A DNA stretch of 40,033 nt, taken from the UHGV virus genome UHGV-0235137; one strand, given 5' to 3'. Made by a program: the position numbers and the translations under genes. Position 1 is the stretch's first letter. The number at the start of each line of letters is the position of its first letter. The notes below the pieces were generated by a model. That model had not been told where the DNA came from. It did not search any database and saw only the letters and a program-made list of their open reading frames with translations. This stretch comes from a virus. Shown piece by piece: positions 5,066-38,242 of this stretch.

Positions 5066-6667
5066 ATGGACTTAAATGCTGTTAAGCAGAAGCGAGTGGA
5101 AGATGTTAGGAAAGTCCTAGCTGGAGAGTTGGGGCTTTCTGATGAAGTAAAAGAAATTATCAAATCATTCGGTAAAGACCCCTCTAAATTCCTTCCAACT
5201 CAAATTCTGACTTTATTAAGATACACACCAGACCAAGTTAGACTTATCTTCAAATTGATGACTGATAAGAACTATGTAGCCCCTCAGCCGGGTTCTCAAG
5301 AGGTCTTTTTAAATACTAATGCTGATTTGGTTCTCTATGGTGGTGCTGCTGGTGCTGGTAAGACGGCTGCATTGTTAATGGACTCTTTAAGGTTTATTGA
5401 TGACCCTAACTATAACGCTGTCTATTTCCGTCGAAACACAACACAGTTACAAGGTGGTTTGTGGCCTGCTGCAAAGAAACTATTTGGTAAGTTTGGTGGG
5501 GTTCCTCACGAGCAGAAGATGACTATCACATTCCCTTCTGGGGCAACTATCAAGTTTACCTACCTAGAACTTGAAAAGCACGCTGAAGGTCATCAGGGTA
5601 TTGAATACTCAGCTATTTACTTTGACGAAGGTACGCACTTCTCTGCTTCACAGATTTCATACCTACAGACTCGTCTACGTTCTGGGGCTGAAGGTGATTC
5701 ATACATGAAGATTTCTATGAACCCAGACAGAGACCACTTTATTTACGATTGGGTAGAACCATTCTTAGATGAAGAAGGTTACCCAGACCCTGAAAAGTGT
5801 GGTCGTATTCGTTGGTATGTAATGAATGATGGTGTTATGGTTTCTGATTGGGAGAGGGACAAGATTCTTGAAATGTTTCCTCTTGAGATTCCTCAAACAT
5901 ATACATTCATCTCTGGTACGATTGATGATAACCCAATTCTTGACTTCTTAGAACCAAAGTATCGCGGTAAGTTGGAAAACAACACTCCTGTAAACGTTGC
6001 AAGACTTCGTTTCGGTAACTGGAAGGCTCGTGCAGAAGGTTCAAACTATTGGCAAAGACAATGGTGTGAGATTGTTGATTCACTCCCAGAAGATGTATTC
6101 GATGTCAGAGCATGGGACTTAGCAGCAACTTTACCATCTGAGATTAACCCTAATCCAGACTGGACAGCAGGTGTTAAGATGGGTAAATCTAAAAAAGACG
6201 GTTGCTATTATATCATTGATGTAGTAAGATTTAGAGATAGACCCTCTGGAGTCGAAACACAAATTAATTTGACTGCTGAAAGTGACGGTAAGCGAACTGG
6301 TATTTTTATCCCTCAAGACCCAGGCGCTGCTGGTAAATCCTACGCGACATCCCTCATCAGGAAACTTGCCGAGAAAGGCTATCGTGCAAGAGCTAAACCA
6401 ACAAATAAAGATAAAGTTACCCGCTTTGCGGGATTTTCTGCTGCTTCTGAAGCTGGACTTGTAAAAGTCTTGAGAGGTAGCTGGAATGAAGCTTACTTTC
6501 AAGAGCTTGAAGGCTTTTGTGGTGATGGCAAAACTAAAGATGACCAAGTGGATGCTACCAGTGATGCTTTCAACAGTCTTAACGAAGTTAAATTATTCAA
6601 GCCACCATCAATGGGTGCTCACACAGACTTAGTGAGAGGAAACCCATATGAGGGGCTTAGACGTTGA
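5066..6667 (+). CDS. terminase large subunit
   Basis: Walker A GGAAGAGKT, Walker B-like YFDEG, size about 530 aa, followed by portal-sized gene; start moved to the ATG after a GGAGG RBS. Confidence 0.85.
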   Translation: MDLNAVKQKRVEDVRKVLAGELGLSDEVKEIIKSFGKDPSKFLPTQILTLLRYTPDQVRLIFKLMTDKNYVAPQPGSQEVFLNTNADLVLYGGAAGAGKTAALLMDSLRFIDDPNYNAVYFRRNTTQLQGGLWPAAKKLFGKFGGVPHEQKMTITFPSGATIKFTYLELEKHAEGHQGIEYSAIYFDEGTHFSASQISYLQTRLRSGAEGDSYMKISMNPDRDHFIYDWVEPFLDEEGYPDPEKCGRIRWYVMNDGVMVSDWERDKILEMFPLEIPQTYTFISGTIDDNPILDFLEPKYRGKLENNTPVNVARLRFGNWKARAEGSNYWQRQWCEIVDSLPEDVFDVRAWDLAATLPSEINPNPDWTAGVKMGKSKKDGCYYIIDVVRFRDRPSGVETQINLTAESDGKRTGIFIPQDPGAAGKSYATSLIRKLAEKGYRARAKPTNKDKVTRFAGFSAASEAGLVKVLRGSWNEAYFQELEGFCGDGKTKDDQVDATSDAFNSLNEVKLFKPPSMGAHTDLVRGNPYEGLRR

Positions 6668-6683
6668 TAGCTAGGTGAGAAGA

Positions 6684-8150
6684 ATGGCAGAAATTACAGA
6701 AACACAAGAAAGCTTACCACCATTTAGAATGGGTGAAGTAGGTTCTTTGGGTCTGAAGGTTAAGAATGGAAGAATCTATGAAGAACCTCGTCAGGCACTA
6801 AGGTTCCCTGAAAGTATTAAAACTTTCCAATTAATGATGCGTGACCCTGCTGTAGCAGCATCTGTGAATATTATTAAGATGTTTGTCAGAAAAGTCAACT
6901 GGAGATTCGTACCTCCAAAGGGAAAAGAGCAAGACCCTAAAATGCTTGAAAGAGCAGACTTCTTTAATTCTTTAATGGATGACATGGAGCATGATTGGGC
7001 AGATTTTATTAACTCTGTAATGTCATTCTGCACTTATGGGTTCTGTGTTAACGAAAAGGTTTATAAGAAACGTCAGGGTAAAAAAGGAAAGTACCAGTCA
7101 AAATTTGATGATGGTCTAATTGGGTGGGCTAAATTACCAATCAGAAACCAGTCAACACTTGATAAGTGGTATTTTGACGAAGACTTTAGAAAAGTTACTG
7201 GTGTTAGACAGAATCTGAGAAATGTTTCACATATTGCTGGAGCAATTAATCTTGGAGAAAGACCACTAACAAGAAAACTCCCACGAGCTAAATTCATGCT
7301 GTTTAAGTATGACGATGAGTATGGTAACCCAGAAGGTCGTTCACCATTACTTAATGCTTATGTACCGTGGAAGTATAAAGTACAGATTGAAGAGTATGAA
7401 GCTGTTGGTGTTTCAAGAGACTTAGTAGGTATGCCAAAGATTGGTTTACCACCAGACTATCTAGATGAGAATGCAGAACCTGAAAAGAAAGCTTTCGTAC
7501 AATACTGCAAAACTGTTGTTAATGATATGATTGCTAATGACAGAGCAGGTTTAATCTGGCCTAGATATATCGACCCAGATACTAAAGAGGATATCTTTGA
7601 GTTCTCATTAGTTTCTAGACAGGGTGCTAAAGCATATGATACAGGTTCTATTATTGATAGATATTCCAAGCAGATTATGATGGCATTCATGTCAGATGTT
7701 CTTGCTATGGGTCAGTCAAAATATGGTTCATTCTCTCTTGCAGATTCTAAGACAAGCCTATTAGCAATGTCAGTAGATATTCTGCTAAAGCAAATTAAGA
7801 ACGTAATTAACCGTGATTTAGTTGCACAGACTTATGCTCTTAATATGTGGGATGATGAAGAACATGTACAAATCACATATGATGATATCGAAACTCCAGA
7901 CCTTGAAGCAATTGGTTCTTATATTCAGAAGACTGTTGCAGTAGGTGCTTTGGAAGTTGACAAAGAGCTATCTAACAAACTTAGAGAGCATATTGGTCTT
8001 CCTCCTGCTGATGAGTCTCAGCCAGTATCTGAAAAGCTTTCTCCAAATAGCCAAAGCCGTTCAGGAGATGGTTATAAGACCGCTGGGGAAGGTACTGCAA
8101 AGACACCTTCAGCGAAAGACCCAAGCACAGCAAATAAGGCAAATAAATAA
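6684..8150 (+). CDS. portal protein (candidate)
   Basis: about 490-aa ORF directly after terminase; assigned by position and size; ATG at 6684 preferred over GTG at 6675. Confidence 0.6.
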   Translation: MAEITETQESLPPFRMGEVGSLGLKVKNGRIYEEPRQALRFPESIKTFQLMMRDPAVAASVNIIKMFVRKVNWRFVPPKGKEQDPKMLERADFFNSLMDDMEHDWADFINSVMSFCTYGFCVNEKVYKKRQGKKGKYQSKFDDGLIGWAKLPIRNQSTLDKWYFDEDFRKVTGVRQNLRNVSHIAGAINLGERPLTRKLPRAKFMLFKYDDEYGNPEGRSPLLNAYVPWKYKVQIEEYEAVGVSRDLVGMPKIGLPPDYLDENAEPEKKAFVQYCKTVVNDMIANDRAGLIWPRYIDPDTKEDIFEFSLVSRQGAKAYDTGSIIDRYSKQIMMAFMSDVLAMGQSKYGSFSLADSKTSLLAMSVDILLKQIKNVINRDLVAQTYALNMWDDEEHVQITYDDIETPDLEAIGSYIQKTVAVGALEVDKELSNKLREHIGLPPADESQPVSEKLSPNSQSRSGDGYKTAGEGTAKTPSAKDPSTANKANK

Positions 8151-8650
8151 TGGCTGAAGTTATCTCTATTTCAAATGCTACACGAGTGCATTCGTATAGG
8201 GGTGTCCTTATCATTACTGATAAGCTATCTGTAGAGGCTGGCTCAAGGGTCAGCCTTTCAGGTTATGTTAGTGATGGTGGAATCTCTGACGTTTTCACTA
8301 TTTGCAGGTTACTTGATGCACCAATGAGTGGAAAACCGTTTATTTCAGGAAATTGTAGTGAAATTGTTAAAATTCCATTTGACAGTTCATGCCTTTTGGG
8401 TGTAAAGTTATATAACTGCGAGAATAAACGTATCAATGTTAATAGCATTGAAGCCGCTTTCATTACCCTCGATACTGCATTTCAATCTCCAATGACAGTT
8501 AATAAAGAAACAAACAGACTTGAATACATTTTTTCACAAAATGATTACAAAGTACTTGTCAAAGGTAAAGTATATGATATGATTGTAAATGTGGTAGATG
8601 AATCTGGTAACCATTCAACAGTCCTTAAACAAAAAGTAAGGTTTAATTAA
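8150..8650 (+). CDS. hypothetical head-module protein
   Basis: 166-aa ORF whose start overlaps the portal stop. Confidence 0.5.
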   Translation: MAEVISISNATRVHSYRGVLIITDKLSVEAGSRVSLSGYVSDGGISDVFTICRLLDAPMSGKPFISGNCSEIVKIPFDSSCLLGVKLYNCENKRINVNSIEAAFITLDTAFQSPMTVNKETNRLEYIFSQNDYKVLVKGKVYDMIVNVVDESGNHSTVLKQKVRFN

Positions 8651-8982
8651 TGGGAACATTAACTATTGATGGTAAGAATAAAATCCTCGCCACGCTAACC
8701 CCAACGACTATTATTTTACACAATGTAGACCCAACGGCAGACCCTACAGCAAATAAGGTTACTCAGCCAGTGGCTATTTATTTTTCTGAACCGGATAATG
8801 GCTTAATTGCCTCAGAAGACACAGTTGATATTACTGTTCCAGCTTCTGCAACGGTCTCACACTATAGCTTGTGGGATGCTAACGATAAATGCGTGGCAAC
8901 TGGTGCTCTTAGCAAACCTCAATTCTTTGCTGAAGAAGGTATCTATGTTATCTCTTCAGTCTCTGTAGATTTAAACAAATAG
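8650..8982 (+). CDS. hypothetical head-module protein
   Basis: 110-aa ORF in the same orientation, start overlaps the previous stop. Confidence 0.5.
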   Translation: MGTLTIDGKNKILATLTPTTIILHNVDPTADPTANKVTQPVAIYFSEPDNGLIASEDTVDITVPASATVSHYSLWDANDKCVATGALSKPQFFAEEGIYVISSVSVDLNK

Positions 8983-8993
8983 GGTGAGTAAAA

Positions 8994-10340
8994 ATGAGTT
9001 CGAATATCTTCAGACTTGCTGATAGATTATTCAACCAACCTTTACTAGCCACTGAATCATTAGCTCACTCAGCAGCAACTTATGTGAATAACAGATTGCT
9101 GGGTGATGTCCAAGCAGCAGTAAACTTTGATACCCCAAAAGGTGATGCAAGAAGTCTTTTAAAAGTAAAAGATGATATTGCTATTATCCCTATTATGGGT
9201 GGCTTAACCCATCGTATGACATTCATTGATGCAATGTGCACAGGTGGTTTAAGTTCTTATGAAGGTTTACGCAGAGGCTTTGACGAAGCTTTAGCAGATG
9301 AGTCAATTAAGACTATTGTTCTGCACATTGATTCTGGTGGTGGTGAAGCTTCAGGTTGCTTTGAATTAGCACGTCACATTATGGCTTCAAGAGGCCAAAA
9401 GAAAATTATTGCTTATGTAGATGAGTTCGCTTGTTCCGCTGCATATGCTCTTGCATCTTCTGCTGAAGAAATTATTGCATCACCAGATGCAGATGTTGGT
9501 TCTATCGGTGTAATCATGGTTCATCAGGAATTAACTAAGGCATTTGAAAAGAATGGCGTAACAATTAACGTCATCAAAGCTGGTGAGTTTAAAGGTATGG
9601 GTTCACCATTCCAAGCACTTTCAGAAGAAAGCAAAGAAAGACTTCAAAAGAGAATTAATGATACCTACACAACCTTTACAGGTTTTGTAGCTGAATCTCG
9701 TAATCTCTCTGAAGAAGCTGTAAAGAATACTGAGGCGAATGTTTATTCTGCTCAGGAAGCTCTTGAACTTGGTTTAATTAACTCAATCATGTCTCAAGAT
9801 GATTTCTTAAATTACTTACAAGGTTCTGAAGAGGCTCCTGTAAGTTTAAACGTTAACAATTCAGGTGAAGAAATGACTGAACAAGAAAAGCAAGAACTAG
9901 AAGCTTTGCGTCTTCAGGTTGCTCAAATGAAAGCTAAAGAACAGGAAGCTGCTTTGTCAGATTTGACTAATAAGATTTCTGCTTCTGCTGAAGCTTTTGG
10001 ATTTGATGCAAAAGAAGCTGCAATGACTATTTTAGGTGCTGGTCTTGATAACCCTCTGAGTGTTCTGTTTATGAATGCTATGGAAGGTGCTAACCAGAAA
10101 CTTAATGAAACTATCGCATCCCATGCTTCTGCAATGGAAGAAAAAGAATCAGAAATTACCAAGCTGAAAGAAACTGCTGGTGCTGTTCTTGAACATTCCA
10201 ACGCTATGGAAGAAGTGGGTAATGACGGCGAAGCTGATTTGGTTGAAGAAGAAAAAGAACCAGCTAAGAATGCTTCCGAAGACACCGCTGAACAACGCAA
10301 ACTGGCTCTCCAGAATGCTCTAAAATCTCTTATTAAATAA
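8994..10340 (+). CDS. prohead protease (S49/ClpP-like, lambda C-like) fused to a coiled-coil scaffold-like C-terminal region
   Basis: N-terminal region with glycine-rich and ...CSAAYALAS... serine motif resembling SppA/S49 peptidases; Glu/Ala/Lys-rich C-terminal half; sits between portal and capsid genes. Confidence 0.65.
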   Translation: MSSNIFRLADRLFNQPLLATESLAHSAATYVNNRLLGDVQAAVNFDTPKGDARSLLKVKDDIAIIPIMGGLTHRMTFIDAMCTGGLSSYEGLRRGFDEALADESIKTIVLHIDSGGGEASGCFELARHIMASRGQKKIIAYVDEFACSAAYALASSAEEIIASPDADVGSIGVIMVHQELTKAFEKNGVTINVIKAGEFKGMGSPFQALSEESKERLQKRINDTYTTFTGFVAESRNLSEEAVKNTEANVYSAQEALELGLINSIMSQDDFLNYLQGSEEAPVSLNVNNSGEEMTEQEKQELEALRLQVAQMKAKEQEAALSDLTNKISASAEAFGFDAKEAAMTILGAGLDNPLSVLFMNAMEGANQKLNETIASHASAMEEKESEITKLKETAGAVLEHSNAMEEVGNDGEADLVEEEKEPAKNASEDTAEQRKLALQNALKSLIK

Positions 10341-10351
10341 GGAACACAACA

Positions 10352-10729
10352 ATGGCATATCAAGGTTTTACTAAGTTAGGTAAAAGAGAACCTCTGAATG
10401 ATATCATTCTTTGGGAACAGGTTACCCCAACAGGCCACTCTCGTAAAGAGTACACTCCGGTTGCTTCAACAGAATATCGTGTAGGTGAAGTTCTGAAGGC
10501 AGACGGTACTAAAGTTACAGCAGGGCAAGAAGCTCAGGCTGATTCGGTATGTATCGTTAACTTCTATGCAGACCTGCAACTGTCTTACCACGGTCAGTTG
10601 AAAGTTGTTGGTATTTACCGCGACGCAGAACTAAAAGACCTGCTTACTCTTGAGTCAGGTGTTGATGCTGCCGCAGTCAAGACAGCTCTGGCTGCCAAAG
10701 GTATCGATTTCGTACCAACTGGCCTGTAA
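10352..10729 (+). CDS. head decoration protein (candidate)
   Basis: 125-aa ORF immediately upstream of the major capsid gene; position only. Confidence 0.4.
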   Translation: MAYQGFTKLGKREPLNDIILWEQVTPTGHSRKEYTPVASTEYRVGEVLKADGTKVTAGQEAQADSVCIVNFYADLQLSYHGQLKVVGIYRDAELKDLLTLESGVDAAAVKTALAAKGIDFVPTGL

Positions 10730-10762
10730 TAACAATAATAAGACATTCTGGAGAATTTTACA

Positions 10763-11869
10763 ATGTTGACTAATTCTGAAAAAAGCAGATTTTTCCTTGC
10801 TGACCTGACTGGTGAAGTCCAGTCTATCCCAAATACTTATGGGTATATTTCCAACTTAGGTCTGTTCCGTTCAGCACCAATCACCCAAACTACTTTCCTT
10901 ATGGACTTGACCGATTGGGATGTTAGCTTGCTTGATGCGGTAGACCGTGATAGCCGTAAAGCAGAGACTAGCGCACCTGAGCGTGTTCGTCAAATCAGCT
11001 TCCCAATGATGTATTTCAAAGAAGTTGAAAGCATCACTCCTGATGAAATTCAGGGTGTACGTCAGCCAGGCACTGCAAACGAACTGACTACTGAAGCTGT
11101 AGTACGTGCTAAGAAGCTGATGAAGATTCGTACCAAGTTCGACATTACTCGTGAGTTCCTGTTTATGCAAGCTCTGAAGGGTAAAGTTGTCGATGCTCGT
11201 GGTACTCTGTACGCTGACCTGTACAAGCAGTTCGACGTTGAGAAGAAGACTATTTACTTCGACCTTGACAATCCTAATGCTGACATTGACGCTGCTATTG
11301 AAGAACTGCGTATGCACATGGAAGATGAAGCTAAGACTGGCACTGTAATCAACGGTGAAGAAATTCACGTAGTTGTTGACCGCTTATTCTTCAGCAAACT
11401 GGTTAAACACCCTAAGATTCGTGATGCTTATCTTGCACAGCAGACTCCGCTGGCTTGGCAACAGATTACTGGTTCTCTGAGAACTGGTGGTACTGACGGC
11501 GTTCAGGCTCACATGAACACTTTCTACTACGGTGGTGTTAAGTTTGTCCAGTACAACGGTAAGTTCAAAGACAAGCGCGGTAATGTTCACACTCTGGTGA
11601 GCATTGACAGCGTAGCAGCAACTGTTGGTGTAGGTCACGCTTTCCCTAACGTTTCTATGCTGGGTGAAGCAAACAACATCTTCGAAGTGGCATATGGTCC
11701 ATGTCCTAAGATGGGTTATGCAAATACACTTGGTCAGGAACTGTACGTATTCGAATACGAAAAAGACCGTGACGAAGGTATTGACTTCGAAGCTCACTCT
11801 TACATGCTGCCATACTGCACACGTCCTCAGTTGTTGGTAGACGTCCGTTCTGACGCTAAACCAAGCTAA
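10763..11869 (+). CDS. major capsid protein (lambda E-like)
   Basis: 368-aa ORF after protease/scaffold and decoration candidate; C-terminal region recalled as resembling lambda gpE; strong RBS. Confidence 0.75.
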   Translation: MLTNSEKSRFFLADLTGEVQSIPNTYGYISNLGLFRSAPITQTTFLMDLTDWDVSLLDAVDRDSRKAETSAPERVRQISFPMMYFKEVESITPDEIQGVRQPGTANELTTEAVVRAKKLMKIRTKFDITREFLFMQALKGKVVDARGTLYADLYKQFDVEKKTIYFDLDNPNADIDAAIEELRMHMEDEAKTGTVINGEEIHVVVDRLFFSKLVKHPKIRDAYLAQQTPLAWQQITGSLRTGGTDGVQAHMNTFYYGGVKFVQYNGKFKDKRGNVHTLVSIDSVAATVGVGHAFPNVSMLGEANNIFEVAYGPCPKMGYANTLGQELYVFEYEKDRDEGIDFEAHSYMLPYCTRPQLLVDVRSDAKPS

Positions 11870-11890
11870 TATTCTTAAGGAGGGTTATTA

Positions 11891-12340
11891 ATGTGTTATA
11901 CAGGCGACCCAGCCAATAACCCTCTTGATAGAGTAAGAATCCTCTGCACAGACACCAATAATGATGAAATTCTTATTGAGCAGTCTGTGCTAGAGTGGTT
12001 CTATCTAGAATCTGGAAAGGATGAAAAGAAAGCAGCCATCAAAGCTCTTAAATATTTACTCTTTCAAGTAGCCAAGATGGGAGATGAGAAGGTTGGTGGT
12101 GTTTATTTACGTAACTCTTCCAGATTCAAGTCTCTGAAGGCTGTTTATGACGACCTTGTTAAAAGCTCTGTTTCAGGACTGCCCTATGCAGGTGGTATTA
12201 GTCAGTGTGATATTGACATGCGTCGTCATAATCCTTGCTCTGTCAAGAAATACACAGAATATGGTGATGCTGCCAGATACGAAGGCAGGGATTACTGCAA
12301 CCGTGTTAATGGCGTATTTATTATCGAGCGAGATGAATAA
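11891..12340 (+). CDS. hypothetical head-completion / head-tail joining protein
   Basis: position between capsid and tail genes. Confidence 0.45.
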   Translation: MCYTGDPANNPLDRVRILCTDTNNDEILIEQSVLEWFYLESGKDEKKAAIKALKYLLFQVAKMGDEKVGGVYLRNSSRFKSLKAVYDDLVKSSVSGLPYAGGISQCDIDMRRHNPCSVKKYTEYGDAARYEGRDYCNRVNGVFIIERDE

Positions 12341-12822
12341 TGGTTAAAAGGGTTATTCACCCCGCTAGAGCAAAATTAGTCGGGGCTATGAAGAACTTGC
12401 AAACGGCTAATGCTCAAGTTGGGTATTTTCAAGAACAAGGTCAACATAGCTCTGGTTTTTCTTATCCTGCTTTAATGTATTTACAAGAAGTTATTGGGGT
12501 TCCTTCAGCTTCTGGTAAAGTATATCGTAGGTTGTTTGAAATCACTATGATGCTAAACAAACAGACCTTGTTAGAGCAGACTAAGAAGAATCTATATAAG
12601 CAACTTAGCAGTCTCAACACAGACCCTTCAAATACCTTAGAAGCATTTGCAAAGAATGCTCAGAAGGCAATTAAAAGAGGCTTTGGTAATTCTGCTATCC
12701 TCCCTCCTAACGCACCTTCCACAGTCAAGAAAAAAGGCTTTAATGCACCTCTTGTTGAGACAGGTGACTTAAGGGATAACCTTGCTTATAAAATTTCTAC
12801 TAAGAAGGGTATTAAAAAATGA
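12340..12822 (+). CDS. hypothetical head-tail joining protein
   Basis: start overlaps previous stop; position. Confidence 0.45.
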   Translation: MVKRVIHPARAKLVGAMKNLQTANAQVGYFQEQGQHSSGFSYPALMYLQEVIGVPSASGKVYRRLFEITMMLNKQTLLEQTKKNLYKQLSSLNTDPSNTLEAFAKNAQKAIKRGFGNSAILPPNAPSTVKKKGFNAPLVETGDLRDNLAYKISTKKGIKK

Positions 12823-13220
12823 GACTCTTAAACAGACACAGCTTTGTAGTAAAGCGTAAAGTCTCTGAAGACGGTTATTATAATGATGATGGTGATTGGG
12901 TAGCTTCACAAGATATTGTAGAGGTTAACTGTAAAGGTAATATCCAGCCATATATCAAAGGTTCTGTAAAGAATGGTACACAGATTGCTTTACCGGAAGG
13001 TATTAGGCTTACCGATACAAGAATCCTGTATACTACATATAAACTTAGAACTTCAGATGATGTAGAGTGGAATGAGTCTGACATTGTTATGATTGATAGT
13101 CATGAGTATGAAGTATTTATGACTATGGATTGGTCACAGCAATTAGCCCATACGTCCCATTATGAATATATCATTATTAGAAGGGATAAAATGAATGCAG
13201 TTAGAAACAGCAGAACTTGA
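12819..13220 (+). CDS. hypothetical head-tail joining protein
   Basis: overlapping start/stop with neighbours. Confidence 0.45.
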   Translation: MRLLNRHSFVVKRKVSEDGYYNDDGDWVASQDIVEVNCKGNIQPYIKGSVKNGTQIALPEGIRLTDTRILYTTYKLRTSDDVEWNESDIVMIDSHEYEVFMTMDWSQQLAHTSHYEYIIIRRDKMNAVRNSRT

Positions 13221-13794
13221 AAAAGGTCTAGTTAGAACCTTAGTGGATGTTATTGGTCACAGACTAGCTCGTGATAAGAATAATAGACCAAACGTAATTA
13301 GAGCTTACCCTTCTGATAACTCAAATGACAAAGGTTTAAAACCTGACCAGCCATTTATTACCGTATATTGTCAAGATGCTGCAACACCTTATGGTTGGGT
13401 TCTTGATAAGTTTGTTGAGGATGATGTAGTTTGCTACAGAATTGCTTTTCAGATTCCAGTATTAATTACGGTAAATGGTAAAGGTGCTCACAGTATTATG
13501 CTTGAGCTTAAACAACGATTAGAGATGAGTTCAGTCAGAGATTTAATTCTTGAAGAGACAGGAGCTACAGTTCTAGATACTGGAGCTATCCCAAATGACT
13601 ATACTTATCTTAATACAGATTTCGAAAATTCTGCACCTCTTGTTGTAACTCTTGTAAAAAATTCAGTCCTGAAAGATGAACGTGGAAGTATTATTGAACG
13701 TGTCATCGTTGATGGTGAATTAGTTTACGAAGAAGGACAAGAGCCACCAGAATATACTATCCATCTAGATGTAGACTCCAAAGGGGTAAAATAA
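13195..13794 (+). CDS. hypothetical tail-completion protein
   Basis: position. Confidence 0.45.
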   Translation: MQLETAELEKGLVRTLVDVIGHRLARDKNNRPNVIRAYPSDNSNDKGLKPDQPFITVYCQDAATPYGWVLDKFVEDDVVCYRIAFQIPVLITVNGKGAHSIMLELKQRLEMSSVRDLILEETGATVLDTGAIPNDYTYLNTDFENSAPLVVTLVKNSVLKDERGSIIERVIVDGELVYEEGQEPPEYTIHLDVDSKGVK

Positions 13795-15147
13795 ATGTGG
13801 AATCCAATTGTTAATGTAGATATTACATTGAACACCGCAGGAACTACAAGAGAAGGTTTTGGGCTACCACTATTTTTAGCTTCAACAGATAACTTTGAAG
13901 AAAGAGTCCGTGGTTACACTTCCTTAACTGAAGTTGCTGAAGATTTCGATGAGAATACTGCTGCATATAAGGCTGCTAAACAACTTTGGAGTCAAACTCC
14001 TAAAGTAACTCAGCTTTATATTGGCAGACGTGCTATGCAGTACACTGTATCAATTCCTGATGCCGTTACCGAAAGTACAGACTACTCAATTACTGTAGCT
14101 GCTGGCGGTGGAATTTCTCAAACATATCAGTATACAGCACTAGAGTCAGATACTGCTGAAAAAGTATTGCAACAGCTCAAAACACAGATTGAAGCTGACC
14201 CAACAATCAAAGATAAGGTTTCTGTGAACGTAACTGGTAGTGGTGCTTCTGCCACAATGATTATTACCAAAGCTGGTGATAATGACTTTGTGAAAGTAAC
14301 AACTACAGCACAGACTGTATATATCGCAAGTACAACTGCTGATACAGCGTCAACTGCTCTGGCAGCCATTGAAGCTTATTCTACCGACTGGTATTTCATT
14401 GCAGCAGAAGACAGAACTCAACAGTTTGTCTTAGCAATGGCTTCTGAGATTCAGGCTCGTAAGAAAATCTTCTTCACTGCTAACTCTGATGTATCAGCAC
14501 TACAAGGTACAGAATTAAACAGTGCAAACGATGTTCCAGCACAACTTGCTAAGAGTATGTATACTCGCACAGTTTGCTTGTGGCATCACACAGCAGCAGA
14601 AGACTATCCAGAGATGGCATACATTGCTTATGGTGCTCCATACGATGCAGGGTCAATTGCTTGGGGTAATGCTCAGTTGACTGGTGTAGCGGCTTCTCTA
14701 CAGCCAGCTAATAAGAGACCTCTGACAAGTATTCAGAAGTCAGCTTTAGATGCGCGTCACTGTAACTTTATCGACCTTGATGGTGGTGTTCCAGTGGTTC
14801 GTAGAGGGATTACTTCTGGTGGGGAATGGATTGATATCATCCGTGGTGTTGACTGGTTGGAATCAGACCTGAAAACTTCTCTGAGAGACTTGCTAATTAA
14901 CCAGAAGGGTGGTAAGATTACTTATGATGATACTGGTATTACCCGTATTCGTCAAGTCATTGAAACCTCTCTACAAAGAGCAGTCAACAGAAACTTCCTG
15001 TCATCTTACACAGTTAATGTTCCTAAAGCCTCTCAAGTTGCTTTGGCAGACAAGAAAGCTCGTATCCTGAAAGACGTTACCTTCGCAGGTATCTTGGCAG
15101 GGGCTATCTTGGATGTTGACTTGAAAGGTACAGTGGCTTACGAATAA
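13795..15147 (+). CDS. tail sheath protein (candidate)
   Basis: 450-aa ORF followed by a 148-aa tube-sized ORF, chaperone pair and tape measure. Confidence 0.55.
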   Translation: MWNPIVNVDITLNTAGTTREGFGLPLFLASTDNFEERVRGYTSLTEVAEDFDENTAAYKAAKQLWSQTPKVTQLYIGRRAMQYTVSIPDAVTESTDYSITVAAGGGISQTYQYTALESDTAEKVLQQLKTQIEADPTIKDKVSVNVTGSGASATMIITKAGDNDFVKVTTTAQTVYIASTTADTASTALAAIEAYSTDWYFIAAEDRTQQFVLAMASEIQARKKIFFTANSDVSALQGTELNSANDVPAQLAKSMYTRTVCLWHHTAAEDYPEMAYIAYGAPYDAGSIAWGNAQLTGVAASLQPANKRPLTSIQKSALDARHCNFIDLDGGVPVVRRGITSGGEWIDIIRGVDWLESDLKTSLRDLLINQKGGKITYDDTGITRIRQVIETSLQRAVNRNFLSSYTVNVPKASQVALADKKARILKDVTFAGILAGAILDVDLKGTVAYE

Positions 15148-15162
15148 TAGAGGTAAATTGGA

Positions 15163-15609
15163 ATGGCTATGTATCAGCAATATTCCCCTAAAGACGTTGT
15201 ATGTAGCTGGAATGGCATCGCTATTGAAGGCTTTGCTCCAGATTCATTTTTACGTCTACAGAGAACATCACCACTTATCACACCAGTTGTAGGTGCAGGT
15301 GGTCAGGTTGCTCTGACAAGAAATGCAGACAAGACAGGTACTATTGAGATTGAGCTAATGCAGACTTCTCTCTCTAATCAGATGCTTTCTGCAATTCAAG
15401 CTAAACAAGACAATATGGAACTTGAAGAAGATATCTCTTCTAACTTCGTAATCTACGACCCATCAGGCTCTGTTCTGGCAACTGGTATTAATGCTTGGTT
15501 GCAGGAACTACCACAGATTGAACTTGGTCGTGACCAGAACTCTAAAACTTGGATTTTTGGTTGTGAGAAGCTAGACTACACTTCAACAATTCCAGCGTCA
15601 AGTGTTTAA
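15163..15609 (+). CDS. tail tube protein (candidate)
   Basis: 148-aa ORF between sheath candidate and chaperone genes. Confidence 0.55.
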   Translation: MAMYQQYSPKDVVCSWNGIAIEGFAPDSFLRLQRTSPLITPVVGAGGQVALTRNADKTGTIEIELMQTSLSNQMLSAIQAKQDNMELEEDISSNFVIYDPSGSVLATGINAWLQELPQIELGRDQNSKTWIFGCEKLDYTSTIPASSV

Positions 15610-15682
15610 TAAATCCTATAAGGGGGAGACTTTAAAAGGTCTTCCCCTTTTTTGTTTCTTTTAAAAGTATTAAGGAATCACA

Positions 15683-16081
15683 ATGAAAACAGAATCTAGA
15701 GTAATTAATGGTAAGAAAGTAAATATCGTTCTGCTTGGGGCAAGAGATGGTATTAAGATGTCTATGAAGTTGGGTAAAATTGTTGTTCCAACATTTGCAC
15801 AGATGCTGTCAAGTCTGACTGATAAAGATAAGAAAGAAGCTCCAATGGTTCCATTTAAAGAACTTGTTGAAGCTTGTTTTGACAGAATTGAAGAAATTAA
15901 CCTTGAAGAAATGGCTACCCTGTTATTTCAAGGGGCAACTGTTGATGACTTTCCACTTAATATTGATACATACTTCCAAGCAAACTACGGTGAGTTTATT
16001 GATTACTTAGCATTTGCGCTGGAGGCAAACTTCGGAAGTTTTTTCGAAGCAAGCATTTTCAAAAGCCTAACTTCTCAGTAA
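15683..16081 (+). CDS. tail assembly chaperone (G-like)
   Basis: directly upstream of tape measure; slippery heptamer near its 3' end. Confidence 0.6.
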   Translation: MKTESRVINGKKVNIVLLGARDGIKMSMKLGKIVVPTFAQMLSSLTDKDKKEAPMVPFKELVEACFDRIEEINLEEMATLLFQGATVDDFPLNIDTYFQANYGEFIDYLAFALEANFGSFFEASIFKSLTSQ

Positions 16082-16083
16082 AC

Positions 16084-16322
16084 ATGGGTAATACTCTACA
16101 GACACCACTGACTGATGCTGCTGTAGAGGCAACCTATGAAGAAGCAGACGAGATGAAATTTGTGCTTGCTATTTATGGTATGGAAGGGTGTAAAGAAACA
16201 CTTGACCAACTCTTTGCTATGACATTCTCTGATTTATTATCATTGAGACAATTTCTTGAAATTCAGAGGTCGTATAAAGAGGAAATTGCTTACAACGAAC
16301 TTAGAAGAGCAGGAAAAATGTA

Positions 16323-16323
<1 letters not shown>
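16084..16323 (+). CDS. tail assembly chaperone extension (T-like), likely expressed as a -1 frameshift fusion
   Basis: its frame equals the -1 frame of the upstream ORF at T TTT TTC (16039-16045); no stop between. Confidence 0.55.
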
Positions 16324-24339
<8,016 letters not shown>

Positions 24340-24341
24340 TA

Positions 24342-25529
24342 ATGGCAGTAGGTGAAATTCAAATTAGTGCCTTGCCTCAAGCAGCCTTACCAATTGACCT
24401 TAGTGATATCTTCCATCTTAAGCAGGGTATTGAGGATAAGAGGTGTACTCTTGAGCAATTACTTGCTCCACACGCAAGCCTAAGAAATAACCCTCATGGT
24501 GTTACTAAGACACAAATTGGTTTAGATAATGTTATTAATGCTCTTCAGTTAGTTGCTGCAAATAACTTATCAGATATTGTTAATGTAGCTGAGGCAAGAG
24601 CAAATCTACAGATTATGTCTTCAGAAGAGGTTAATAACCTTGTCCAGCAACATATTCAGGACAAGAGTAACCCACACAATACAACTAAGGCACAGGTTGG
24701 TTTAAGTAATGTTCAGAACTGGACAACATCTAACCTGTATAACGAAGATGCAGATAAGTATGCTACAGCAAGAGCAGTAAATAACTTGTACAAGGCTGTT
24801 CAGGCTTCTTATCCAGTAGGTACTATCCATCTTTCTATGAACTCTGCAAACCCTTCTACATACTTAATTTGTGGAGGTACTTGGGAGTTAGTTTCAAAAG
24901 GTAGGGCATTGGTTGGCTATGACTCTGATACAAGGCCAGCAGGTTCTGTATTTGGTGCTTCAACTGTCACTTTGTCAGTTAATAATATGCCTCAACACTC
25001 ACACTCTGTGTCTCTCAGTGGTGGTGGTCACACTCATAATGCAACTGTTTCAATCTCAGCTTTTGACTATGGAACTAAGACTACCAACTCTTTTGACTAT
25101 GGAACAAAGACCACTAACACAACTGGTAACCACAATCACGTTGGTAGTGGGTCAACAAGTGCTGCTGGTGCTCACAACCACAGATTGACTTATGAAGCAG
25201 GTGGTGGTCTGTCGGAAAGACCTGCAATGGTTTGGTCTACAAGGAATGACCAATCGTGGTACTCAGCAGATGCTGTCTGCGAAGTCGCTGGTTCGCACAC
25301 CCACTCTTTTAGCGTTACCACTAACACAACTGGTAACCACAATCACACAGTGGGGATTGGTGCTCATAGCCATACAGTTGGTATTGGTTCACATACACAC
25401 AATGGTACTGTGACAGTTTCTTCTTCTGAGCATACACATAGTGGAAACACGAATAGTGTTGGTGGTGGACAAGCTTTCAACATTGAGCAGCCATCCTTCG
25501 TACTGTATGTATGGCAGAGAACAGCTTAA
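24342..25529 (+). CDS. tail fibre protein with C-terminal His-rich HxH repeat domain
   Basis: repeated SHSHS, GHTHN, GNHNH, AHNH, GSHTHS, AHSHT motifs; C-terminal end similar to the next gene. Confidence 0.7.
   Translation: MAVGEIQISALPQAALPIDLSDIFHLKQGIEDKRCTLEQLLAPHASLRNNPHGVTKTQIGLDNVINALQLVAANNLSDIVNVAEARANLQIMSSEEVNNLVQQHIQDKSNPHNTTKAQVGLSNVQNWTTSNLYNEDADKYATARAVNNLYKAVQASYPVGTIHLSMNSANPSTYLICGGTWELVSKGRALVGYDSDTRPAGSVFGASTVTLSVNNMPQHSHSVSLSGGGHTHNATVSISAFDYGTKTTNSFDYGTKTTNTTGNHNHVGSGSTSAAGAHNHRLTYEAGGGLSERPAMVWSTRNDQSWYSADAVCEVAGSHTHSFSVTTNTTGNHNHTVGIGAHSHTVGIGSHTHNGTVTVSSSEHTHSGNTNSVGGGQAFNIEQPSFVLYVWQRTA
25061..25120 (+). repeat. 30-bp tandem duplication inside the tail-fibre gene (encodes FDYGTKTTN twice)
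   Basis: ttttgactatggaactaagactaccaactc / ttttgactatggaacaaagaccactaacac. Confidence 0.8.
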
Positions 25530-25575
25530 TTTCTTTACAGGGGCTTTATAGCCCCTTTTAAGAGGATAATATATA

Positions 25576-27633
25576 ATGGCAGATTACAAATTGAGTGAAT
25601 TAAACTCAATCGACACAATCCGTTCAGATGACCTTCTTCATGTCAGAGTTAAAAAGAGACCTGAAATGCTGGGTGATGAAGACCGTCGAATGACCTATCA
25701 AGATTTCTTAGCATCTTTTAAGCTTGAGAGATTTGTTCAGATTGCTGGCAGCACTATGACGGGTGACTTAGGAATTGTCAAGTTACTTTATGGTGGTAAG
25801 GCAGTCTTTGACCCAACAGGTTCTTCTGAGATTACTATTGGGGATGTTTTAAAGACTTTTAAAATTAACGCAAATGGTCTTAAACTAACTATTGCAGATG
25901 CTTCAAGGTCGGCAACTGTTTACCATACTCTGAATAAACCAAGTCCTAATGAGCTTGGGATGAGAACTAATGAACAGAATGATACAAGGTATGCAAGGCT
26001 AAGCGTTGGTAATACATTTAAAGCTAAACAGATTATCACAGTAGATGGTGAAGCATTAGCACTTAAAAATACTTCTGATATGCCATCTTTATATATTAGA
26101 GGTAAAGATTCAGGAGATAGATTAAAGTGGTACGTTGGATTTAACACAGATAATAAACTTGGTTTATCTAATAGTGTTACTGGTACAACACTACTATTAG
26201 ATGATACCGGTATTAACTCAAATAAAAATCTAAATATCACTGGTCAGGTTAAACCCTCTGATTGGTCTAACTTAGATGCTAGATATTTTACTCAGACAGT
26301 AGCTAATCAGAGATTTGCACAGTTAGCTGGGAATAACACTTTTAGTGGCACTAATACGTTTAAAAAAGATGTTATCTTTAACTCAGATGTTCCGGTTGTT
26401 CTTAAGAACTTAACAGCTAATAGACCATTGTATATTCAGGGTAAGGATTACCAGAATACTAGTTTGTGGTTTGTTGGTAAGGGTGGAACTGGTACTGAGA
26501 TTAAATTTTATAACTATGTGACTGATACAGTTTTAGAGTTGTCTGAGACGGCTAGATTTAATAAAACTTTGAAGGTTACTGGACAGGTTCAACCGTCTGA
26601 TTGGGCTAACCTAGATGCTAGATACTATACAGGTTCAGCAGCAAATGCCAGATATATGTATGCGGAAAGAACTGGTGAAGGTGCTGATGAGGGTGCTATT
26701 GCTTGGAATGCTAAGACAGGAGTATATAATGTCAAGACGGGGGGAGCCACATCATCAAATCTTGTACTTCAGTTCTATCAGGGGTCGGGGTCTATCACAT
26801 CTACGCCATCTGCGCAGCTAAGATTTAAATGGGCGAATGGTGGTATGTGGTATAGGACATCAAGAGATGGTAATGGCTTTGAGAAAGGTTGGTCTATGGT
26901 GTACACAACTGCACAGAAGCCAACCCCTTCAGATATTGGTGCATACACTAAAGCAGAAACTGACCAGAAGATTGCACAGGCAATTAGTGACTCTACAGAC
27001 CTTAACAAAATCTATCCAGTAGGCATTGTAACGTGGTTTAACAGTAATGTTAACCCTAACACAGCGTTGCCTGGGTTAACTTGGACGTACCTGAACAATG
27101 GTGTTGGTAGAACTATCAGAATCGCAGCAGCAAACGGTTCAGATGTTGCTACAACTGGTGGTTCAGACTCTGTAACTTTAGCTGTTGGTAACTTACCATC
27201 ACACACTCACAGTTTCTCTGCTACCACTTCATCTTTTGATTATGGTACGAAGGGCACTAATAGTACTGGTGGACATACTCACTATGTAAGTGGTACAACA
27301 AGTGCTGCTGGTAACCATGCTCACCACTTAGGTCTGTTATTAGTTAACGGTGGTGATGCTTTGTACGGGTATACAACCATTGGTAACGGTCTCCCTAGAA
27401 CGCTTGACTGGCTTGATAGAAGAGATAACAAGTTCCCTAACACTAACACAACTGGTGACCATACACACACATGGTCTGGTACTGCAAGCGGTGCTGGTGA
27501 CCATTCCCACTCTGTAGGTATCGGTGCTCACAGCCACACAGTTAGTGGTAACACTGGTAGTACAGGTTCTGGTTCAGCATTTAGTGTTACTAACCAGTTC
27601 TATAAGCTAATGGCTTGGGTAAGAACTGCTTAA
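25576..27633 (+). CDS. tail fibre protein (long), internal ~105-aa duplication and C-terminal HxH domain paralogous to 24342-25529
   Basis: PSDW(S/A)NLDARY repeated; C-terminal SHTHSFS...GGHTHY...GDHTHT...GDHSHSVGIGAHSHTV. Confidence 0.7.
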   Translation: MADYKLSELNSIDTIRSDDLLHVRVKKRPEMLGDEDRRMTYQDFLASFKLERFVQIAGSTMTGDLGIVKLLYGGKAVFDPTGSSEITIGDVLKTFKINANGLKLTIADASRSATVYHTLNKPSPNELGMRTNEQNDTRYARLSVGNTFKAKQIITVDGEALALKNTSDMPSLYIRGKDSGDRLKWYVGFNTDNKLGLSNSVTGTTLLLDDTGINSNKNLNITGQVKPSDWSNLDARYFTQTVANQRFAQLAGNNTFSGTNTFKKDVIFNSDVPVVLKNLTANRPLYIQGKDYQNTSLWFVGKGGTGTEIKFYNYVTDTVLELSETARFNKTLKVTGQVQPSDWANLDARYYTGSAANARYMYAERTGEGADEGAIAWNAKTGVYNVKTGGATSSNLVLQFYQGSGSITSTPSAQLRFKWANGGMWYRTSRDGNGFEKGWSMVYTTAQKPTPSDIGAYTKAETDQKIAQAISDSTDLNKIYPVGIVTWFNSNVNPNTALPGLTWTYLNNGVGRTIRIAAANGSDVATTGGSDSVTLAVGNLPSHTHSFSATTSSFDYGTKGTNSTGGHTHYVSGTTSAAGNHAHHLGLLLVNGGDALYGYTTIGNGLPRTLDWLDRRDNKFPNTNTTGDHTHTWSGTASGAGDHSHSVGIGAHSHTVSGNTGSTGSGSAFSVTNQFYKLMAWVRTA

Positions 27634-27640
27634 TCCCTTA

Positions 27641-27669
27641 TTGACTGATTGTTAAGATGGTGTTAATAT
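27641..27669 (+). promoter_or_regulatory. possible sigma70-type promoter: -35 TTGACT, 17-bp spacer, -10 TAATAT
   Basis: hexamers at 27641-27646 and 27664-27669, upstream of the 27712 ORF. Confidence 0.4.
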
Positions 27670-27711
27670 TCTCTAGGGTATTCTCACCATCTTGGCTGAT
27701 GAGGTGATTAA

Positions 27712-27906
27712 ATGCCTACAATCCTAGCAATTCTTCTAAAAAATCTAGGTAGCTTCTTCTGGAAACTCATTTTATCCCTTCTAAGTGAATACATGATTGA
27801 GAAAGTGTTCTTTAGGCTTGCAAGATACCTTGCGAGTAAAACAGACACACCTATTGATGATGAGTTCGTAGATAACTTAGAGAAAGCTTTTAAGGGGGGA
27901 GAATAA
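27712..27906 (+). CDS. small hydrophobic protein (holin-like candidate)
   Basis: 64-aa ORF with hydrophobic N-terminal half, after tail fibres. Confidence 0.45.
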   Translation: MPTILAILLKNLGSFFWKLILSLLSEYMIEKVFFRLARYLASKTDTPIDDEFVDNLEKAFKGGE

Positions 27907-28278
27907 ATGAAGTGGCTAGAGGAAGCTTTTAAAAATAATATTGGTGCAATTGTAGTTGGTATTTTTAGTGTTATTGGGATGTATACCACCATGCAAGTTT
28001 CGGATGGTAAACAAGAAGTGTCTATCACAACAAAGTTACAGCAGTTAGATAATTATTCCAAAAGTAATTATTCAGCTATTCGTGATTTACAGTCTGATAT
28101 GAGGCTGCTTCAGCTAGGGATGGAGAACCAGAAAGTCCAGTTAGAGAATGTTAAGGGTGAGAATGCAAAACTTACTAAGACTCTTGATAAATTCTCTGAT
28201 AGTGTGAACAATCTGGCTCAATCAGTATCAGCCCTCCAAGCTATTACTGAAAAGAACACAAAGAATACTGAAAAGTAA
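27907..28278 (+). CDS. membrane-anchored coiled-coil protein (lysis-associated candidate)
   Basis: N-terminal hydrophobic segment then heptad-like polar region; start overlaps previous stop. Confidence 0.45.
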   Translation: MKWLEEAFKNNIGAIVVGIFSVIGMYTTMQVSDGKQEVSITTKLQQLDNYSKSNYSAIRDLQSDMRLLQLGMENQKVQLENVKGENAKLTKTLDKFSDSVNNLAQSVSALQAITEKNTKNTEK

Positions 28279-28285
28279 AGTTTAA

Positions 28286-28311
28286 GGCTCCTTTTTACGG
28301 GAGCCTTTTTT
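28286..28311 (+). terminator. rho-independent terminator at the convergence of + and - gene blocks
   Basis: hairpin ggctcc-ttttac-gggagcc followed by tttttt. Confidence 0.6.
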
Positions 28312-28314
28312 GTT

Positions 28315-29214
28315 TTATTTACCTACTGACAAAGGTGCTTCAATCTTTCCTGCATGTTGGTAATTGTTAATACCACCAATAAAGTCACTTGCAGTGAGAT
28401 GTTTTAAGTCACTTAAAGTGTTAAGTGGGATACCAATCTCAAAAGTTGGTGCATGGAACTCTTCATTGTTCATCAGTTCATAAACCTGCTTCATATGATT
28501 CTGATAAATCTGAGTATCTCCAAAGACACCTATCAAGTACCGTGGAGTGTACCCAGTCATCTTACAAAGAACTTCCAGAATAAAACCATAAGATGCAATA
28601 TTAAACGGAAGTCCTAAAAAGGTGTCTACTGAACGCTGATACCATTGTAAATCAACTTCACCTCCATTAGTGATATAAATCTGAAACAGAACATGACAAG
28701 GTGCTAAAGCCATTGAGTTTGCTGCAATATCTGCTGCATTCCAAGCATTAACAAGCATGTAACGGTCTGTGATATCACCCTTCATCTTTGTTACTAAGGT
28801 CTCTAACTGGTCTACAACACAACCATTATGACCTTCAAAGTTTCTCCACTGAACTCCGTAGATTCTCCCACCTGCATCTTCTAACCAATCTTGTTCAGAA
28901 GAATAGTTAGAGCTTAACCAGCGTTTAAAATCATCTGACCAGATAGTCCAACGTTCCCCATCATTTTCACCCCAAGTACGATAACGGAGTTCACCCAGCT
29001 TATTCTCGCCATTCAGGAACCATAAAGCTTCCCCAATAACTTGCCGTGTAAACACCTGTTTAGATGTTAAGAGCGGGAAACCAGTTCGCATATCAAAACG
29101 AAACTGAGGTGGAGCAAATGCAGAGATGACATCTCCAGTTCGTGTAGTACGCAGTTCACCAACTGATAAAACATGGTTCAGGATATTTTTGTAACTTGAA
29201 TCTGCTTGTGACAT
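28315..29214 (-). CDS. thyA: thymidylate synthase
   Basis: GFPLLTSK...ALWFLNG and catalytic ALAPCH motifs characteristic of ThyA. Confidence 0.95.
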   Translation of the reverse strand: MSQADSSYKNILNHVLSVGELRTTRTGDVISAFAPPQFRFDMRTGFPLLTSKQVFTRQVIGEALWFLNGENKLGELRYRTWGENDGERWTIWSDDFKRWLSSNYSSEQDWLEDAGGRIYGVQWRNFEGHNGCVVDQLETLVTKMKGDITDRYMLVNAWNAADIAANSMALAPCHVLFQIYITNGGEVDLQWYQRSVDTFLGLPFNIASYGFILEVLCKMTGYTPRYLIGVFGDTQIYQNHMKQVYELMNNEEFHAPTFEIGIPLNTLSDLKHLTASDFIGGINNYQHAGKIEAPLSVGK

Positions 29215-38182: not shown

Positions 38183-38242
38183 TTTTACTCCCTCTAAAAT
38201 CATTAACCTCATACATTACTGCAAAAAATTATAAAAAGCAAG

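Follow-up and report, generated by a model that had tools for sequence, protein, structure and literature searches.

A Felixounavirus-type virion gene module, from terminase to long tail fibre, in virus genome UHGV-0235137

UHGV virus genome UHGV-0235137 was analysed as a single stretch of 40,033 nt, referred to below as the window, and the region described here (nt 5066-27633) carries 26 co-directional genes on the plus strand, beginning with the large terminase subunit (TerL) and ending with the long tail fibre. Gaps between the genes range from -26 to +73 nt, and coding sequence makes up 99% of the span. Judged from its sequence, the block is almost certainly the late (virion) gene module, in complete form, of a virulent Felix O1-like myophage of Escherichia/Salmonella that belongs to Felixounavirus (subfamily Ounavirinae). 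A megablast search with nt 5051-25000 (19,950 nt) matched 304 phage records; in 244 of them the match spans at least 80% of the query. Escherichia phage vB_EcoM-LTH02 came out best (97.6% identity over 100%). Among the matches, those listed belong to Felix O1-type phages infecting Escherichia, Salmonella and Shigella, and the remaining records are named after phages of related enterobacteria. The module is colinear, gene for gene, with that of the RefSeq genome VpaE1 (taxonomy Ounavirinae; Felixounavirus), and the non-fibre proteins share 93-100% amino acid identity with their VpaE1 counterparts. The same colinearity extends to the other Felixounavirus virions compared (Bas63/JohannRWettstein and Felix O1, together with VpaE1), at 96-97.6% DNA identity. 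The surroundings are also of the Felixounavirus type, with a tRNA array 5' of the terminase gene and convergent nucleotide-metabolism and DNA polymerase A genes 3' of the late block, a layout shared by VpaE1. The analysis returned no evidence contradicting the assignment.

Some observations nevertheless weigh against a full identification with the known phages. No identical record is present in the collection searched; similarity to relatives is highest in the structural module, at the 97.6% given above, and falls to ~95%, with indels, in the right-hand part of the window, so the sequence represents a distinct isolate of a well-populated genus. One conserved protein of the neck module (nt 12340-12822) has no relative among solved structures in a PDB search, and the gene for Hex-Dec, the second decoration protein of the family, lies outside the window according to synteny with VpaE1. 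Finally, the contractile tail of the present isolate is predicted from its genes.

The gene assignments draw on the virion structure of phage Bas63, determined by electron cryomicroscopy (cryo-EM) and published in Science Advances in 2025 (PMC12609058). According to that study, the capsid has T=9 geometry, with gp8 as the major capsid protein (MCP) and gp7 as the beta-tulip decoration protein (Dec). Portal gp3, adaptor gp9, head completion protein gp11 and the tail terminator gp12 form the connector, which is accompanied by a collar and by whiskers of gp5. The tail is contractile, its sheath (gp13) and tube (gp14) being arranged in 26 hexameric discs, and the baseplate comprises the hub (gp20), the puncture apparatus (gp21), the tube initiator (gp18), the spacer (gp19), wedge 2 (gp23), wedge 1 (gp24), the long-tail-fibre (LTF) platform (gp25), the short tail fibre (STF; gp26) and the LTF itself (gp27) (PMC12609058). 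The chain names and gp numbering of the PDB entries 9mt4, 9mt5, 9ncf and 9ndy ('Hub protein (gp020)', for instance) fit this study. The order of ORFs (open reading frames) in the window maps one-to-one onto the Bas63 gp numbering, and particular residues that PMC12609058 names in the collar, adaptor and spike were found in the corresponding window proteins. The virion of a sister phage, Shigella phage Sf14, was solved independently, and its description combines a beta-tulip decoration protein, called 'lambda-like', with what is termed a 'simple Mu-like baseplate' (PMC11821841). Contractile-tail morphology has been seen by cryo-EM both in the near-identical Bas63 and in Sf14 (PMC12609058, PMC11821841). 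Gene content, gene order, family membership and near-identity to solved structures come from the present analysis; virion architecture is taken from the literature.

A previous sequence-only reading of this DNA had placed a sheath-sized and a tube-sized gene, chaperones, a tape measure gene and a run of baseplate-sized genes behind the head genes, in an order resembling PBSX/Mu-type contractile tails rather than a lambda siphovirus tail. The ORFs it listed are present, and the profile searches that it proposed (nt 13795-15147, 15163-15609 and 19689-23177) matched sheath, tube and baseplate families, so that the tail is confirmed as contractile in type with genes in the order of a Mu/P2-type 'simple' baseplate. 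The 450 aa protein is the tail sheath (Bas63 gp13; nt 13795-15147), with matches to DUF3383 (7.8e-23), PHROG 205 'tail sheath' (8e-124) and PDB 9mt4_Q (1.4e-284), and weaker PDB matches to sheath chains of other phages including 9cb9_A 'Tail sheath protein' and Pam3 8hdr_M. It is followed by the 148 aa tail tube protein (gp14; nt 15163-15609; KPP10_Orf10, 3.6e-7; PDB 9mt4_P 'Tube protein', 4e-96), which also matches tube proteins of other myophages in the PDB. Next come two tail assembly chaperone ORFs, the upstream one with a lambda G-like role (nt 15683-16081; Phage_TAC_15, 1.2e-19) and the downstream one, in the -1 frame, with a lambda T-like role (nt 16084-16323; PHROG 4963 'tail assembly chaperone', 2.8e-55). 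The tape measure protein (TMP; gp17; nt 16323-18551; TMP_3, 3e-17), annotated as such in VpaE1, lies directly behind them. With a tail sheath, a separate inner tube and a tail terminator (see below), the module has the components expected of a myophage.

The baseplate genes begin with a Dit-like tube initiator (gp18; nt 18551-19348; Dit_like, 3.9e-20; PMC12609058) and the baseplate spacer (gp19; nt 19348-19689; Pam3_gp18 baseplate plug, 3.5e-17; PMC12609058). The run at nt 19689-23177, which had been singled out as baseplate-sized, proved to consist of hub, puncture apparatus, sheath initiator and a J-like wedge. The hub (gp20; nt 19689-20666) matches PHROG 196 'baseplate hub' (1.6e-82) and PDB 9ndy_E 'Hub protein (gp020)' (5.5e-219), and the puncture apparatus or central spike (gp21; nt 20666-21289) matches the spike N-terminal domain PF18352 (6e-20), PDB 9ndy_G 'Puncture apparatus (gp021)' (5.9e-143) and the Pam3 spike gp20. 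The HxH iron-binding motif of the spike is retained as H188 and H190. The sheath initiator (gp22; nt 21289-21708; PHROG 120; PDB 9ndy_C 'Sheath initiator (gp022)', 4e-89) matches 'Sheath initiator' chains of five phages in the PDB, 9ndy_C and four others, and we take it to be of the gp25/W-like class. Baseplate wedge 2 is J-like (gp23; nt 21708-23177; Baseplate_J, 4e-16; PHROG 6, 1.2e-72; PDB 9ndy_H 'Wedge protein 2 (gp023)', E = 0) and also matches the Pam3 wedge gp22 in the PDB; PHROG labels both of the proteins encoded at nt 21289-23177 'baseplate wedge subunit'. All of the elements looked for in a simple baseplate are therefore present, namely a gp25/W-like sheath initiator, a J/gp6-like wedge, a central hub and a membrane-piercing spike. 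Wedge 1 (gp24; nt 23180-24037; PHROG 4017 'baseplate protein', 2.9e-174) is a protein of 285 aa, a length in agreement with PMC12609058; residues 3-287 align to positions 1-285 of the PHROG profile, and an AAGGAG motif lies upstream of its ATG. The remaining genes specify the LTF platform (gp25; nt 24037-24339; PHROG 4141, 9.5e-62), described as T4 gp9-like in PMC12609058, the STF (gp26; nt 24342-25529; Gp10_C, 1.3e-18; PHROG 2097 'tail fiber', 1e-137), which has 86.6% identity to its VpaE1 counterpart, and a 685 aa LTF with a T4 gp37-like tip (gp27; nt 25576-27633; gp37_trimer, 3e-42; gp37_C, 7.5e-16; PHROG 4277, E = 0).

Between portal and protease lies a collar protein, with an Ig-like ring and an N-terminal 'rope' (nt 8150-8650; PHROG 3977, 3e-100), which was assigned because Cys52, Cys69 and Cys90 fall exactly at the disulfide positions of the Bas63 collar; going by gene order it would be gp4. 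The next gene encodes the whisker protein (gp5; nt 8650-8982; PHROG 240, 1.4e-28; PMC12609058), related to podophage GP4 fibre I, with a match to Pfam PF23140 Gp80 (1.4e-4) that is under the gathering cutoff. Downstream of the MCP gene are the head-tail adaptor (gp9; nt 11891-12340; PHROG 1732), carrying Cys2, Cys106 and Cys116 as in the Bas63 adaptor, and the conserved 160 aa neck-module protein mentioned above, which is the tenth module gene by order, matches PHROG 222 'tail completion or Neck1' (2.5e-40) and is 100% identical to its VpaE1 homologue. The head completion protein (gp11; nt 12819-13220; PHROG 2874 and PHROG 939) was placed by its position and by the gp number given in PMC12609058, and the tail terminator (gp12; nt 13195-13794) by matches to Phage_tail_terminator_9 (5e-13) and PDB 9mt4_F 'Tail terminator protein' (2.5e-131).

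At the left end of the block, TerL (nt 5066-6667) combines a T4-type Terminase_6 ATPase (PF03237, 5e-42) with an RNaseH-like nuclease (PF17289, 4e-33) and shares 99.3% amino acid identity with the VpaE1 protein. The portal protein (gp3; nt 6684-8150), annotated as portal in VpaE1 and described in PMC12609058, is of the Mu family (Portal_Mu PF06074, 1.6e-26). The head block of S49 protease, E-like capsid protein and candidate decoration protein that had been predicted from the sequence was recovered in full. The head maturation protease (nt 8994-10340) is a lambda gpC-like member of Peptidase_S49 (PF01343, 4.8e-39). No separate scaffold gene lies between the portal and MCP genes, and the C-terminal ~155 aa of the protease, which are rich in E, A and K, probably act as the scaffold. 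An in-frame ATG at codon 294 (~nt 9873), preceded by AGGTGA, suggests a putative nested scaffold within the protease gene in the manner of lambda C/Nu3, an arrangement with which these features are compatible. The decoration protein Dec (gp7; nt 10352-10729) is of the beta-tulip type and was identified through PDB 9ncf_J 'Head stabilization/decoration protein' (6e-75); it did not match the gpD family in Pfam (HDPD, PF02924), and its PHROG matches are 2680 'head decoration' (1.7e-4) and, as the best, 4146. The latter is labelled 'tail protease', as is the protein in RefSeq VpaE1, a propagated misannotation that the authors of the Bas63 study had already flagged (PMC12609058). The MCP (gp8; nt 10763-11869) has the HK97 fold and belongs to Phage_cap_E (PF03864, 4.3e-78; PDB 9ncf_A, 4e-247).

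How far the head can be called lambda-like, as the sequence-only reading had it, was assessed by comparing all 26 module proteins with lambda A, W, B, C, D, E, FI, FII, Z, U, V and G (BLASTP and phmmer). The sole significant match was that of the S49 protease to gpC (BLASTP, 33% identity over 254 aa, E 3.6e-37), i.e. one of the five head proteins compared. The MCP gave no significant pairwise match to gpE by either program, and the two proteins are nevertheless members of one Pfam family, PF03864 (gpE, 1.7e-72). The order protease-decoration-capsid equals lambda C-D-E. In contrast, the portal is Portal_Mu and not the Phage_portal_2 (PF05136) of lambda; TerL is Terminase_6N/6C and not GpA_ATPase/GpA_nuclease (PF05876, PF20454), lambda B and A themselves matching the respective lambda families; and Dec falls outside the gpD family, although published structures show the beta-tulip fold to be common to both. 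The lambda head is also T=7 where the published Bas63 capsid is T=9 (PMC12609058). The description thus stands for the protease, the capsid protein family and the gene order, and fails for the portal, the terminase and the decoration protein. A literal 'lambda head' was rejected because the protease-gpC match is the only significant pairwise one; what the two heads have in common is two families (S49 and Phage_cap_E) and the order of genes.

A close relative outside the genus with a solved virion is Sf14 (Mooglevirus, Ounavirinae; PDB 9c39, 9c3b, 9c2d and 9c3a), which has the same architecture: a T=9 E-family capsid, beta-tulip Dec, whiskers, a contractile tail, a 'simple Mu-like baseplate' and two retracted fibres. 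Its chains match the sheath, tube, MCP, Dec and terminator of the window at E-values of 1e-75 to 1e-260. In the simple tails of Mu, P2 and Pam3 the functions likewise run from sheath and tube through the chaperone pair and TMP to the hub, spike, gp25/W-like sheath initiator, J-like wedge, second wedge and fibres, but the sequence similarity to the window is only remote. Mu shares the Pfam family of the portal, and the sheath, spike, sheath initiator, wedge and plug of Pam3 are detectable homologues of window proteins. The module differs from these systems in having gp37-type fibre tips and an LTF platform, the latter described as resembling T4 gp9, and the phage in being virulent with a genome of 85-90 kb. 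Fibre chaperones of the Mu type are lacking, according to PMC11821841. The pairing of an E-family capsid with a DUF3383 sheath recurs in other phages: PDB 9mjn has matches to both MCP and sheath, and the pairing is also seen across the Phi92 entries 21uy/21vm (one match each) and across 9zbi/9zdk (one each). By these matches, it is not peculiar to the lineage.

The combination of head and tail types invites other explanations, which were weighed against the Felixounavirus assignment. If the tail were that of a siphovirus, the 450 aa protein would be an oversized major tail protein, and what follows it would form a distal tail complex in place of a baseplate. The two lambda Pfam families of the head and the Dit_like match of one downstream protein could be read in this way, but there is practically no chance of it: DUF3383, PHROG and PDB chains all identify the 450 aa protein as a sheath, a separate tube gene follows it, the module encodes a sheath initiator, a J-like wedge, a hub and a spike, and none of the window's tail proteins significantly resembles lambda Z, U, V or G. 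The Dit-like protein itself is the tube initiator of the Bas63 structure. The situation that the sequence-only reading had named as decisive against itself, a siphovirus major tail protein of 450 aa and a lack of wedge homologues, is the reverse of what was found, and a siphovirus tail is already refuted by the family and structure matches. The order sheath-tube-chaperone-TMP-baseplate is also common to elements of the PBSX and R-pyocin types, and a defective prophage or tailocin cluster in a bacterial chromosome would share it. This possibility is vanishingly small given the terminase, portal, protease, capsid and decoration genes, the flanking tRNA array and genes for replication and nucleotide metabolism, all of phage type, and the lack of any integrase or host gene among the flank genes scanned; moreover, complete 85-90 kb genomes of Felix O1-type isolates align with the window along its length.

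A recent chimera, with a lambdoid head and a Mu/PBSX-type tail brought together at a novel boundary near 12-13.8 kb, would account for a head trio in lambda C-D-E order beside a tail in Mu/P2 order, and mosaicism is common among phages. It is nonetheless very improbable. The whole block is colinear in its relatives, with the protein identities of 93-100% given above, and is conserved throughout Felixounavirus; it is kept, at lower DNA identity, in the records of Sf14 and of Citrobacter phages and in Ounavirinae phages of Erwinia and Pectobacterium; and the same capsid-sheath pairing is found in more distant solved myophages. The protease, at 33%, is the only protein to match lambda pairwise, the portal and terminase being non-lambda. 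GC content is 0.37-0.44 with no step at the head/tail gene boundary, and none of the 304 matching records carries the tail module on another head type, or the reverse, at >90% nucleotide identity. Because of this conservation, the same pairing in distant phages, the weak similarity to lambda and the flat GC profile, any mosaic origin must be ancient. An artefactual joining of two unrelated genomes during assembly is likewise unlikely, as many independent complete genomes are colinear with the window. The head/tail mosaic is real, but it is no discovery: a classical myophage lineage has it as its standard architecture, and PMC12609058 and PMC11821841 both describe it explicitly.

With the module assigned to Felixounavirus, two of its features go beyond the published descriptions, the first being the way in which the chaperone pair may be expressed. 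A candidate -1 programmed frameshift heptamer, T_TTT_TTC (nt 16039-16045, plus strand), lies in the correct 0-frame register to join the two chaperone ORFs. The -1 frame is open from nt 16003 to 16323, and its stop codon (nt 16321-16323) overlaps the TMP start codon by one base. Five Ounavirinae genomes were sampled, of which three come from named genera, and the heptamer, its register and a 92-94 aa extension up to the TMP start were found not only in the window but also in VpaE1, Sf14 (Mooglevirus), Erwinia phage Roscha1 (Kolesnikvirus) and Wc4. DNA identity to Sf14 is ~80% in the chaperone region. In the Erwinia phage records shown, the sole DNA similarity to the 641 nt chaperone region is a 41 nt island over the heptamer (92.7%), and Pectobacterium phage Wc4 likewise retains a 69 nt stretch over it (81%). 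Annotation does not reflect this arrangement: the downstream reading frame is unannotated in Roscha1 and Wc4, and a joined chaperone coding sequence (CDS) is annotated in none of the records inspected. The 80 nt 3' of the heptamer showed no RNA structure beyond that of shuffled controls (z = 0.46), and for this reason no stimulatory hairpin is claimed. A literature search returned nothing relevant on a chaperone frameshift in Felixounavirus, and PMC12609058 and PMC11821841 are silent on frameshifting. The chaperone pair is probably made via a -1 frameshift. Frameshifting of the G/GT type is a conserved feature of phage tail chaperones in general.

The second feature is the length of the LTF. 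In comparison with the 791 aa fibre of its closest relative, that of phage DE7, the window protein is 97% identical but lacks 318 nt in frame (106 aa), which is exactly one beta-helix repeat unit located between two GQVQPSDW..RY linkers. The deletion junction (~nt 26576-26625) falls within a 50 nt direct repeat, the copies of which are 82% identical. The VpaE1 fibre shows 64% identity over the first 350 aa (the repeat region), is more divergent in the next stretch and is largely conserved over the last ~235 residues. The junction of the shortened form was contiguous in none of 50,697 phage records, and the shortened fibre may be either a natural length variant or a deletion/assembly artefact. 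A published survey of 18 species put the low conservation of the repeats down to sequence variation, not to large deletions or varying repeat number. Taken jointly, that the fibre is a genuine length variant produced by recombination between the 50 nt linker repeats that lie between beta-helix units, and that the chaperones are expressed as a lambda G/GT-type pair via T_TTT_TTC, we hold to be moderately probable.

Upstream of TerL, the window carries an array of 19 tRNA genes interspersed with small ORFs (nt 94-4621), a region with 92-96% identity to relatives and indels. In VpaE1 the indel pattern of this region and of the replication side differs from that of the window. The small ORFs at nt 1374-1766 and 2684-3097 within the array had no Pfam match, and some listed ORFs overlap tRNA genes, for example nt 3650-4447 (at its 5' end) and nt 4510-4737. 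A DUF7217 protein (nt 3713-4447; Pfam, 2e-89) is encoded upstream of two small ORFs and TerL, and no small terminase subunit was identified within the window. Downstream of the late block, minus-strand genes specify thymidylate synthase, dihydrofolate reductase (DHFR), an ATP-dependent ligase, an HNH-AP2 endonuclease and a family A DNA polymerase (DNA_pol_A). The HNH-AP2 homing-endonuclease-like gene (nt 34971-35483, minus strand) directly abuts the polymerase gene (nt 35483-38212, minus strand). The annotation of the relative DE7 splits the polymerase into two pieces, a hint that endonuclease insertions around this gene vary.

Start codons were corrected for TerL (ATG at nt 5066, preceded by GGAGG, in place of the TTG at nt 5051 in the ORF list, and already taken as the start in the sequence-only reading), the portal (ATG at nt 6684) and wedge 1 (ATG at nt 23180). 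These are the most likely starts, as each has a Shine-Dalgarno sequence and agrees with the VpaE1 annotation. A scan of nt 10000-28400 for promoters and terminators gave counts not above those of shuffled sequences (51 vs 48.2 promoters; 8 vs 10.7 terminators). A terminator-like hairpin with a 13 bp stem and a T-run (nt 15620-15649, plus strand) is found in the 73 nt gap 3' of the tube gene; as the terminator count is not above that of the shuffles, its possible role as a terminator is put forward from position and stem strength only. The other of the two strongest hairpins, likewise with a T-run (nt 28284-28307), lies where the plus-strand late block ends and meets the convergent genes of the minus strand.

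Taken together with the established model of contractile tails and the Bas63 and Sf14 structures, the gene content points to a likely pathway of assembly and contraction. The T4-type terminase would package DNA via the Mu-family portal into an HK97-fold capsid, whose E-family MCP would be processed by the S49 protease, the C-terminal domain of the latter probably being the scaffold, and the capsid would be cemented by trimers of the beta-tulip decoration protein. The tube would polymerise on the tube initiator and hub around the TMP, aided by the chaperone pair. The sheath would polymerise from the gp25/W-like initiator on the baseplate, which is of the simple Mu/P2 type (hub, iron-tipped spike, spacer and two wedges) and would bear the short fibre and the long, gp37-tipped fibre. 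Receptor binding by the fibres would presumably be the trigger for rearrangement of the baseplate and contraction of the sheath, by which spike and tube would be driven across the envelope.

Felix O1-type phages were already known in the 1940s. With near-atomic virion structures published in 2025, the module described here matters little as a discovery, and its practical value is that of annotation: the window could be labelled gene by gene from the Bas63 atlas, and labels of this kind correct database names, among them the 'tail protease' given to the decoration protein. Ounavirinae annotations could also gain the candidate frameshift site of the chaperone pair. If the shortened LTF is a natural variant, the number of repeats in Felixounavirus long fibres does vary, and the shortened fibre may bear on the host range of the isolate.

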